Source: Escherichia phage WPEC6
Direction: 5' to 3' (one strand)
Length of the DNA stretch: 64,000 nt
Sequence record: PV763039.1
Made by a program: the position numbers and the translations under genes. This document shows positions 17,315 to 18,442 of this stretch, in pieces. Below the pieces are notes generated by a model that was given only the letters and a program-made list of their open reading frames with translations, ran no database searches and was not told the origin of the DNA. Every line of letters starts with the position of its first letter. Positions within the stretch are counted from its first letter, which is position 1.

Positions 17315-18442
17315 TTATTCTGCTGGTTCCCAAGTGCCTGGGATCATTTCTCGAATACGAACACCAACAGGTTTTGTTGGAATACCTTCATCTGAAAATT
17401 CTTCATACTCTATTTCAACAAACTGATTAATCAAGGTAGAAGCATTCTCTGCTTTACGATAATTGATAGTCTCATGAGCATCTTTACGCATTAAGAATTC
17501 GACTACTTTACCATTTTCCATCTCACCTGTCAACACTCCATCGCCATTTTTATCACTTTTTGAATTTGTTACTTTAACTTCAAGGGTATGGCGAGGCTTA
17601 CGTTTAATAACGTCATAAGAACGTTTATCAAATTCGTAAACTCCGTGAGCATTACGATATACTACACCTTCAGCTTTCTCAAGTAAAGCTTTTTCATAGA
17701 AAGCATCAAACTGTTCTTGGTTTTCAATATACTCTGTATGAACTACACAAATAAGCTCATCAAGACCATAATCTTCAACTACTGCCTTAAGAGCAGCAAG
17801 AACATCAACACGTTTTTCAAACGGTAGATCTGGAACTGGAATATCGTATACGTAATAATTCAGCAAAGGTGTATTTGCATTATGCTTCTTCCAGGCGCTG
17901 TTAATTTGTTGCAGACTAAGGACACCTAACCCAGCAAACACTTCACCATCAAGAGGATGACCAACAACTTCACTAATAAAGTTTGGAATACCTTTCCAAT
18001 GAGGTGGCAGGTTATACACTTCCCCAGCTTTTGATAAACACTCTCCTTTCATGTTAATCATAGAACGTAACCCGTTCAGTTTGTATTGTGCATAACCAGG
18101 GAACACAACCCTTTCAGGATAATCTTTATAATCCTGGCATTTCATTGGTGTGGAAGGAACATGGTTTTCAGCTTCTTCTTTTGTTTTATAATAACCATTC
18201 TTTAACTGTTTTGTCCATTTGGCAAAAGCTTCAAGTTCAGCTTGTTCTTCCGGTGTTGTTTCATTGGAGCGACCAATGTTTTTTGCTTCTGCTGTATAAG
18301 ATTTTTCTGTGATTTTTCCACCTACTCTTCCATGAGCTACAGTAACAACTGCACCATCTGTATACACTGTCCACTGTTTAAGTTTTCCTTTTGAATCTTT
18401 ACCATACAGCGTTTGATTTGTTTGTTGCATTAGTCCTCCCAT
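17315..18442 (-). CDS. ATP-dependent ligase-like nucleotidyltransferase (DNA or RNA ligase), motif I K-L-N-G
   Basis: YKLNGLR (motif I with N for D), EGVVYR (IV), DVIKRK (V), OB-like C-terminus. Confidence 0.5.
   Translation of the reverse strand: MGGLMQQTNQTLYGKDSKGKLKQWTVYTDGAVVTVAHGRVGGKITEKSYTAEAKNIGRSNETTPEEQAELEAFAKWTKQLKNGYYKTKEEAENHVPSTPMKCQDYKDYPERVVFPGYAQYKLNGLRSMINMKGECLSKAGEVYNLPPHWKGIPNFISEVVGHPLDGEVFAGLGVLSLQQINSAWKKHNANTPLLNYYVYDIPVPDLPFEKRVDVLAALKAVVEDYGLDELICVVHTEYIENQEQFDAFYEKALLEKAEGVVYRNAHGVYEFDKRSYDVIKRKPRHTLEVKVTNSKSDKNGDGVLTGEMENGKVVEFLMRKDAHETINYRKAENASTLINQFVEIEYEEFSDEGIPTKPVGVRIREMIPGTWEPAE

Follow-up and report, generated by a model that had tools for sequence, protein, structure and literature searches.

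A probable ATP-dependent DNA ligase of Escherichia phage WPEC6 with asparagine in motif I and the three-domain architecture of the African swine fever virus enzyme

In canonical ligases, the Asp of the KxDG signature of motif I sits near the catalytic metal. A stretch of 64,000 nucleotides from Escherichia phage WPEC6 (sequence record PV763039.1; the whole stretch is called the window here) encodes on its minus strand a ligase-like protein whose motif I reads K-L-N-G, and the question raised by this locus is whether the Asn marks a lost function, a different substrate or simply a variant of a DNA ligase. A preliminary description of the window, made without database searches, had presented the protein as a second ligase of the ligase/capping superfamily and had left its substrate uncertain (a DNA nick, RNA or another adenylylation target). 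We conclude, with a probability of about 90%, that the protein is a functional ATP-dependent DNA ligase that seals nicks, a reading drawn from sequence families, a structural model and analogy with a characterized enzyme. [quoted passage not shown]

The longest open reading frame (ORF) lies at 17315..18442 on the minus strand and encodes 375 amino acids, as the preliminary description had it; its translation in the ORF listing includes YAQYKLNGLR and FPGYAQYKLNGLRSMINMKGE. One correction concerns the start codon. The first ATG, at 18442, lacks a ribosome-binding site and overlaps the final codons of the ORF lying upstream (..W-E-D-stop). Directly 5' of the second ATG, at 18430, stands a GGAGGA Shine-Dalgarno sequence (minus-strand start context AAATGGGAGGACTAATGCAACAA), and this second ATG is the GenBank start of the identical gene of another phage, nearly all homologs being ~371 amino acids long. 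Because GGAGGA precedes the second ATG and because annotators and nearly all homologs use it, the ligase gene probably spans 17315..18430 on the minus strand, with 371 codons plus a stop; this delimitation draws on the ORF, the Shine-Dalgarno sequence, identity to VUF54361.1 and the matches to PF01068 and PHROG 114. Residues of the ligase are numbered from the ATG at 18430.

The identical gene was found by a tblastn search of a phage collection, with a 100% match in Escherichia phage phAPEC8_ev052 (LR597654.1; Stephanstirmvirinae, Phapecoctavirus), where it is annotated as 'ATP-dependent DNA ligase, phage-associated' (VUF54361.1); the shared protein is referred to below as the phAPEC8 ligase. 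Matches of 99% were obtained to Klebsiella phage ZCKP1 and others. Overall, homologs occur in 1010 phage records, and in 814 of these the match spans at least 80% of the query; among the homolog rows sampled, most carry a DNA ligase annotation.

Profile searches confirmed the membership of the protein in the covalent nucleotidyltransferase (ligase/capping) superfamily and placed it within an ATP-dependent DNA ligase family. PF01068 was matched with 38.1 bits, above its gathering score of 26.2, the full model (1-204) aligning to residues 99-282 of the 375-aa form, and PHROG 114 (phrog_114, 'ATP-dependent DNA ligase') was matched over residues 5-366 with E=1.9e-74. When the single sequence was searched against the PDB, only DNA ligases were returned; a profile built from 67 homologs matched 26 PDB chains, and all 26 were DNA ligases. 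The best of these was the ASFV ligase (6imj, E=1.2e-23, profile positions 37-364 on ASFV residues 74-411), and later matches included Lig E (4e-19) and the Chlorella virus ligase (4e-16). Regarding the features of the NAD-dependent ligase LigA (Ia, zinc finger, HhH and BRCT), no LigA match was obtained in Pfam or NCBIfam, and no NAD-dependent ligase occurred among the 26 PDB profile matches or the 50 Foldseek matches listed.

Structure prediction and comparison, which the preliminary description had suggested as a check, led to DNA ligases as well, the ASFV enzyme first. The AlphaFold2 model (pLDDT 94.4, pTM 0.83, input alignment of 67 sequences) shows an N-terminal domain with a four-stranded sheet (residues 8-46) and a long helix (60-77), an alpha/beta nucleotidyltransferase domain in the middle and a beta-rich C-terminal part (281-360) that superposes on ligase OB domains in Foldseek. 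The top Foldseek matches in the PDB were the DNA-bound, closed forms of the ASFV ligase (6imn, 6iml and 6imk; E ~1e-24), with TM scores of 0.76-0.78 by query and 0.70-0.71 by target; these alignments extend over ~410 columns on a target of 408 residues, so all three domains are covered. Next came Lig E, the ligases of T4, a Rhizobium phage, Chlorella virus and P. marinus, and then archaeal and human ligases, and the matches below ASFV involve the nucleotidyltransferase/OB core only (TM by query <=0.6). One of these, the Rhizobium phage P10VF ligase (9fzx), was considered as a member of the same subgroup and set aside as a distant core match with an all-helical DNA-binding domain.

The protein thus has the three-domain architecture of the ASFV ligase. 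The N-terminal alpha/beta DNA-binding domain (~residues 1-95; 18146..18430, minus strand) was delimited from the model, Foldseek and the profile alignment, the nucleotidyltransferase (adenylylation) domain with motifs I, III, IIIa, IV and V (~residues 96-280; 17591..18145, minus strand) from PF01068, the motifs and conservation, and the C-terminal OB-fold domain (~residues 281-371; 17318..17590, minus strand) from the modelled strands at 281-360, the fold matches and the PF14743 (DNA_ligase_OB_2) domain that homologs carry in Pfam. As modelled, the N-terminal domain is of the ASFV type, its first ~36 residues by fold alone; the profile alignment begins at ASFV residue 74 and includes a conserved KN.G..N.TT...QA segment, and W20, G34, K50, N51, G53, N56, Q63 and A64 are invariant or nearly so in the homolog alignments. 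The ASFV counterpart, a flat sheet with a long helix in residues 1-120, was described as a 'completely novel' mixed alpha/beta fold that follows the major groove and is indispensable for binding and ligating DNA (PMC6344480).

The catalytic motifs are conserved throughout. Besides motifs I, IV and V and the OB-like tail, which had already been noticed, motifs III, IIIa and VI were recognized. Motif I, K117-L-N119-G-L-R122 (18065..18082, minus strand), was located in the alignment of 260 homologs and contains the predicted AMP-accepting lysine, K117, and, two residues on, the Asn encoded by AAC at 18074..18076 in the position of the canonical Asp. It thus departs from the KxDGxR consensus in the Asp and keeps the Lys, the residue that defines catalysis. 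Motif III is PLDGEVF, with D161 and E163; motif IIIa is NYYVYDIP, with D196; motif IV is AEGVVYRN, with E254, G255 and R259; and motif V is DVIKRKP, with K276 and K278. The motif VI region, GIPTKPVGVRIRE (17348..17386, minus strand), lies within the OB-fold tail and was identified by the profile alignment to 6imj, in which its P-x-x-P-V-G-x-R-x-R pairs with IPLQARAVGFRE of ASFV. Across the 260 full-length family members aligned with MAFFT, K117, G120, R122, D161, E163, D196, E254, G255, R259, K276, K278 and R360 are invariant or conserved in more than 93%, and seven of them (K117, G120, E163, E254, G255, K276 and K278) are fully invariant (n=260).

Position 119 is a natural polymorphism of this family. 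In the MAFFT alignment, Lys and Gly of motif I are present in 260/260 sequences, and the residue at 119 is exclusively Asn (160) or Asp (100). Among the 120 closest homologs (45-100% identity), KxNG predominates, with 107 cases and 13 of KxDG. An exhaustive profile search retrieved 18,326 proteins at E<=0.001, of which 3,446 also passed E<=1e-30 (>3,400 clusters at 50% identity), and among ~130 representatives with a recognizable motif, ~40 have KxNG and ~85 have KxDG. Sequences with Asp come as close to the phAPEC8 protein as 51-53% identity, and the same N-terminal domain is combined with K-[LM]-D-G in cultured phages of other genera, namely Felixounavirus finno, Nankokuvirus KPP10, Vequintavirus naam and Lahexavirus 4_4572. 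Switching between the two residues takes a single G/A transition (GAY to AAY). Fitch parsimony on a neighbour-joining tree gave ~30 N/D changes, a count somewhat inflated by tree error, against ~80 with shuffled labels; the N/D state is therefore phylogenetically structured, yet it has flipped many times.

An Asn at this place is also compatible with activity in a characterized enzyme. In both the phmmer and the profile alignments, KLNGLR of the phage protein falls on KRNGVR of the ASFV ligase, whose catalytic residue is Lys151 and which binds ATP, seals nicks in vitro and has been crystallized on nicked DNA (Chen et al., PMC6344480). Its Asn153 stands where human LIG1 has the highly conserved Asp570, and the two residues are alike in conformation (PMC6344480). 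The activity of this enzyme therefore establishes experimentally that a K-x-N-G ligase can work. The observation of an Asn in place of the Asp of KxDG (K117-L-N119-G) was accurate, and, on the evidence of the sequences compared here, this residue is a natural family variant that gives no sign of a different substrate. It is no warning sign because Asn is the majority state and has been exchanged with Asp ~30 times, and within this family it should not be read as lost function or changed substrate. The profiles, the PDB matches, the Asn majority and the active ASFV Asn153 enzyme all point to a DNA ligase; with a clear assignment by profile hidden Markov models (PF01068, PHROG 114) to a DNA ligase family in which Asn occurs naturally, the doubt about the substrate was therefore unwarranted.

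Motif I of some homologs also harbours inteins. Six intein-bearing homologs (P0124, P0146, P0160, P0176, P0181 and P0190) are 706-785 amino acids long, and in all of them except P0124, an intein with a LAGLIDADG homing endonuclease lies inside motif I, with the junctions K-L-D-G/C...V-H-N/C-R; in P0124, the insert begins upstream, and no KLDG/C junction was seen in the stretch viewed. In a Pfam search, these long homologs passed the cut-off for LAGLIDADG_2 and came close to that for Intein_splicing, which P0176 alone exceeded.

The Asn does not vary in isolation. Chen et al. name four 'unique' nick-site residues of the ASFV ligase (PMC6344480), and these were mapped onto the phage protein through the 6imj profile alignment and by counting in the ASFV sequence. 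ASFV Asn153 (human LIG1 Asp570) corresponds to N119, where the phage family is divided as given above; Leu211 (LIG1 Phe635) corresponds to L173, which is invariant in the 67-sequence alignment; and Leu402 and Gln403 (LIG1 Arg871 and Phe872) correspond to T352 and K353 in motif VI, both of which vary with position 119. Mutual information with position 119 peaks in a handful of columns, T352 and K353 among them. Thus, T-K occupies 352-353 in 122 of the 160 sequences with Asn119, and Q-F, R-F and L-K occur in 28, 24 and 17 of the 100 with Asp119; Arg352 is found 26 times with Asp119 and never with Asn119 in the 260-sequence alignment. When the sequences were reduced to 100 clusters at >=50% identity, Asn was combined with Lys in 21 and with an aromatic residue in 10, and Asp with Lys in 8 and with an aromatic residue in 48, an association with an odds ratio of 12.6 and a Fisher p of 7e-7 in statistics that ignore phylogeny.

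A structural background for this pairing exists in human LIG1 and LigIV, in which a salt bridge links the motif I Asp to the OB-domain Arg at the equivalent of position 352 (Asp570-Arg871 in LIG1, PMC6344480; Asp275-Arg577 in LigIV, PMC6035275); the motif I Asp is also a candidate metal ligand. We infer that Asn119 with Thr352-Lys353 may form an alternative, co-adapted configuration of the nick site between the nucleotidyltransferase and OB domains, by analogy with Asn153 and Leu402-Gln403 in ASFV. An Asn would be unable to pair with Arg and would hence have Thr-Lys as its partner, which fits the pattern of covariation. The loss of the salt bridge was rejected as the whole explanation of the Asn: Arg352 is present in just 26 of the 100 Asp-type members, and the coupling between 119 and 352 is therefore statistical, not obligatory. 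Still, the coupling of position 119 with T-K or with R/Q-F in motif VI hints at how the interface between the two domains stays closed without the canonical Asp-Arg salt bridge.

Several points, beside the neglect of phylogeny in these statistics, weigh against reading the protein as a functional ligase. In NCBIfam, it matched DNA-ligase models exclusively, all far below their curated cut-offs, these models describing cellular families. Pfam OB models gave no match in the ligase itself, the OB domain being seen in the AlphaFold2 model and in homologs only. A literature search found no biochemically characterized phage member with this N-terminal domain, and the activity is read across from the ASFV ligase at an identity of just ~21%. 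In that enzyme, moreover, N153D together with changes in the OB domain led to a loss of activity (PMC6344480), so the state of this residue depends on context and the two residues are not freely interchangeable. In other ligases, the motif I Asp matters: the D275A change leaves human LigIV with almost no nick-sealing activity, and the Chlorella virus D29A enzyme showed undetectable or trace activity on a pre-adenylated substrate (PMC6035275), so the position is not neutral in general. The same two Ala mutants would speak for a catalytically impaired pseudo-ligase that binds nicks or ends and has lost its chemistry with the motif I Asp. We consider this hardly credible, as the other catalytic residues are conserved across the 260 sequences, the ASFV ligase is active with Asn, the protein is the only annotated ligase of the phage genome, and the restriction of position 119 to Asn or Asp indicates purifying selection for a functional side chain.

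For the preferred reading as an active DNA ligase, we infer by analogy an ATP-dependent self-adenylylation followed by the sealing of 5'-phosphate/3'-hydroxyl nicks in duplex DNA, along the three steps of ligase chemistry reviewed in PMC7470946. In the first step, K117 would attack ATP to form ligase-AMP, with motifs III, IIIa, IV and V binding the nucleotide while the pyrophosphate is oriented by the OB domain through motif VI. In the second, the three domains would close on the nicked duplex and AMP would be passed to the 5'-phosphate; in the third, attack by the 3'-OH would seal the nick. On phage DNA, the enzyme may join Okazaki fragments and seal recombination intermediates as well as nicks from repair, and an own ligase would make the phage independent of the NAD-dependent LigA of the host, as for T4 and T7. 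This replicative and repair role is suggested because the protein is the sole annotated DNA ligase in a phage with its own replication proteins. No second annotated ligase was found in the whole 150-kb record LR597654.1, which encodes a primase/helicase, a large polymerase/exonuclease-type protein, SSB, a UvrD-type helicase, ribonucleotide reductases and thymidylate synthase.

The genomic setting and the nick-site residues lend themselves to a narrower role, which overlaps with the one just given. The protein might be a genuine DNA ligase dedicated to repair or anti-defence, possibly of low fidelity, which reseals nicks left by base-excision repair or by host nucleases with low mismatch discrimination, as in ASFV, while host LigA joins the Okazaki fragments. 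The ligase gene stands on the same strand as, and amid, genes for exonucleases (including PHROG 107), RdgC (PF04381) and a MazG-like pyrophosphatase, and it is not beside the polymerase and primase genes. All four positions named by Chen et al. are ASFV-like, N119 and L173 being identical and T352 and K353 as non-canonical as Leu402 and Gln403, and the ASFV enzyme is an error-prone ligase of base-excision repair (PMC6344480). Exchanging the four ASFV residues, however, cut activity without raising fidelity (Chen et al., PMC6344480), and a repair-only enzyme fits poorly with its being the sole annotated DNA ligase of a genome with its own replication proteins. A role confined to repair is therefore unlikely in our view, if not strongly so.

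Upstream of the ligase region, the neighbourhood has a different character, and it is here that a substrate other than DNA nicks could be sought. An Rnl1-like ORF (19590..20522, minus strand; PF09511 with 56.8 bits, PHROG 562) lies 1.16 kb upstream of the ligase, in agreement with the distance of ~1 kb given in the preliminary description, and is flanked by a P-loop kinase of the PNK type (19185..19589, minus strand; AAA_33, PHROG 2071/505) and a metallophosphoesterase (20524..21075, minus strand; PF00149/PF12850, PHROG 547). The ligase could then be an RNA or RNA/DNA-hybrid ligase that works with these three gene products, the loss of the motif I Asp marking a specificity for RNA ends; in T4 Rnl2, the corresponding residue is His (PMC6035275), and PF09414 (RNA_ligase) gave a weak match to the protein (16.9 bits, E=0.0075). 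That match is below its cut-off of 27 bits, whereas PF01068 is above its own, and PF09511, the Rnl1 family, had no match in the ligase protein in the Pfam search. No RNA ligase was present among the PDB sequence matches, the 26 profile matches or the 50 Foldseek matches listed, where only DNA ligases appeared. In the model, the protein combines an OB domain bearing motif VI with a DNA-encircling N-terminal domain and not with an Rnl C-terminal domain, and the family has Asp-bearing members in Felixounavirus, Nankokuvirus, Vequintavirus and Lahexavirus. An RNA substrate is accordingly very improbable, and this reading was rejected on the sub-threshold Pfam match and the structural matches. As for the label of a second ligase, it holds in the sense that an RNA ligase is nearby, and it does not hold for DNA ligases, of which this is the only one annotated in the phage genome.

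The three upstream genes form an RNA-repair-like cassette (19185..21075, minus strand) in their own right. All three, including the Rnl1-like gene, are listed as 'hypothetical protein' in LR597654.1. By its gene content, the cassette resembles heal-and-seal tRNA repair, with the metallophosphoesterase replacing the phosphatase of T4 Pnkp. Between the kinase and the ligase, a 63-aa ORF (18648..18839, minus strand), hypothetical in the annotation, contains the pairs C-P-C-G ... C-N-T-C-G, and these two CxxC-type pairs suggest a zinc ribbon.

Further features of the window concern its transcription and its other gene clusters. Between 15000 and 24500, promoter-like sites were at chance level (32 seen, 28 expected), and no regulation specific to a gene can be deduced from them. 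The scan of the same region gave one convincing terminator on the strand of the ligase gene, a hairpin at 15205..15228 (minus strand) of 8 pairs (5 G-C) followed by TTTTT, just downstream of rdgC (15262..16140). The ligase may thus lie within a long minus-strand transcription unit that ends at 15205..15228. On the plus strand, ARAGORN detected 10 tRNA genes at 25702..27627 (Met, Arg, Ser, Asn, Thr, Gly, Gln, Pro, Ile and Met). The tRNAs of LR597654.1 have the identical order on the opposite strand, which looks like a strand error in that annotation; a GC-skew switch near 24000 fits transcription of the tRNA cluster from the plus strand. Homologs of RmlA, B, C and D, annotated as a complete dTDP-rhamnose pathway, are located at 39310..42588 of LR597654.1 (about 1523..4801 of the window, minus strand), beside ribonucleotide reductase genes, and the pathway could serve to modify the phage or the surface of its host.

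For the window itself, the outcome is of little consequence, the gene being a correctly annotated phage DNA ligase. For the ASFV enzyme, the comparison has more to offer. Earlier phylogenetics grouped the ASFV ligase, in general terms, with ligases of bacteria and phages (PMC2806865), and in a review of 2020 it was still a singleton whose DNA-binding domain is unique (PMC7470946). In the literature searched, we found this general placement and claims of 'novel' or 'unique' features, and no earlier explicit mention of phages as sharing the ASFV N-terminal domain. With the N-terminal domain and nick-site residues in common, several supposedly unique features of ASFV therefore characterize a very large group of phages: features published as unique and proposed as drug targets are common to thousands of phage ligases, which is context for the origin of the enzyme. 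The coupling between position 119 and motif VI could in turn serve the study of ligase fidelity and domain closure. A broader proposal, which we hold to be possible and rather doubtful, is that the phage family was the source pool of the ASFV ligase, that its Asn/Thr-Lys members, the phAPEC8 protein among them, tolerate mismatches or lesions through a relaxed nick-site geometry like that of ASFV, and that Asn with T-K and Asp with [R/Q]-F are two co-adapted states that have been interconverted many times. If this were true, the 'unique' drug-target features of ASFV would not be unique, and phages would provide a natural series for dissecting ligase fidelity.

Among known systems, the Asp-type phage ligases of PHROG 114 (Felixounavirus finno, Pseudomonas phage KPP10, Vequintavirus naam and Aeromonas phage 4_4572; 31-35% identity) share with the phAPEC8 ligase the N-terminal domain, the motif set and the annotation. 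They differ in having K-[LM]-D-G with Q-F-P-V-G where phAPEC8 has K-L-N-G with T-K-P-V-G, and those of KPP10 and naam carry an insertion of 40-55 residues after motif III. With T4 gp30 and T7 gp1.3, the protein shares a homologous nucleotidyltransferase/OB core and the presumed role of a phage ATP-dependent ligase in replication and recombination; unlike it, the T4 and Rhizobium-phage ligases have an all-helical N-terminal DNA-binding domain, T7 has none, and both T4 and T7 DNA ligases have KxDG. The ligase of Cronobacter phage CR9 (CR9_264), from which the commercial R2D ligase presumably derives, was tried as a characterized relative and dismissed, with no significant BLASTP similarity (best E=0.59). 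The Chlorella virus PBCV-1 ligase and Lig E (4d05, 6gdr and 8u6x) are homologous in their nucleotidyltransferase and OB core (E=1e-16 to 1e-19 by profile and by fold) and lack the N-terminal DNA-binding domain, and the alignment of Lig E 4d05 shows a canonical KLDG. T4 Rnl2 also departs from Asp after K-x in motif I, with His37 (PMC6035275), yet it belongs to a different family with a different C-terminal domain. The closest counterpart is the ASFV ligase (AsfvLIG, NP419L; 6imj, 6imk, 6iml and 6imn), which ranks first in the PDB in both the profile and the fold comparison and has the three domains including the alpha/beta N-terminal DNA-binding domain, KRNG for KLNG, Leu211 at the equivalent of L173 and a motif VI without the canonical Arg-Phe. 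It differs by its low sequence identity (~21%), its additional ~45 residues and a motif VI with Leu-Gln instead of Thr-Lys, and it acts in base-excision repair in a virus of eukaryotes, whereas the phage enzyme presumably serves replication and repair.

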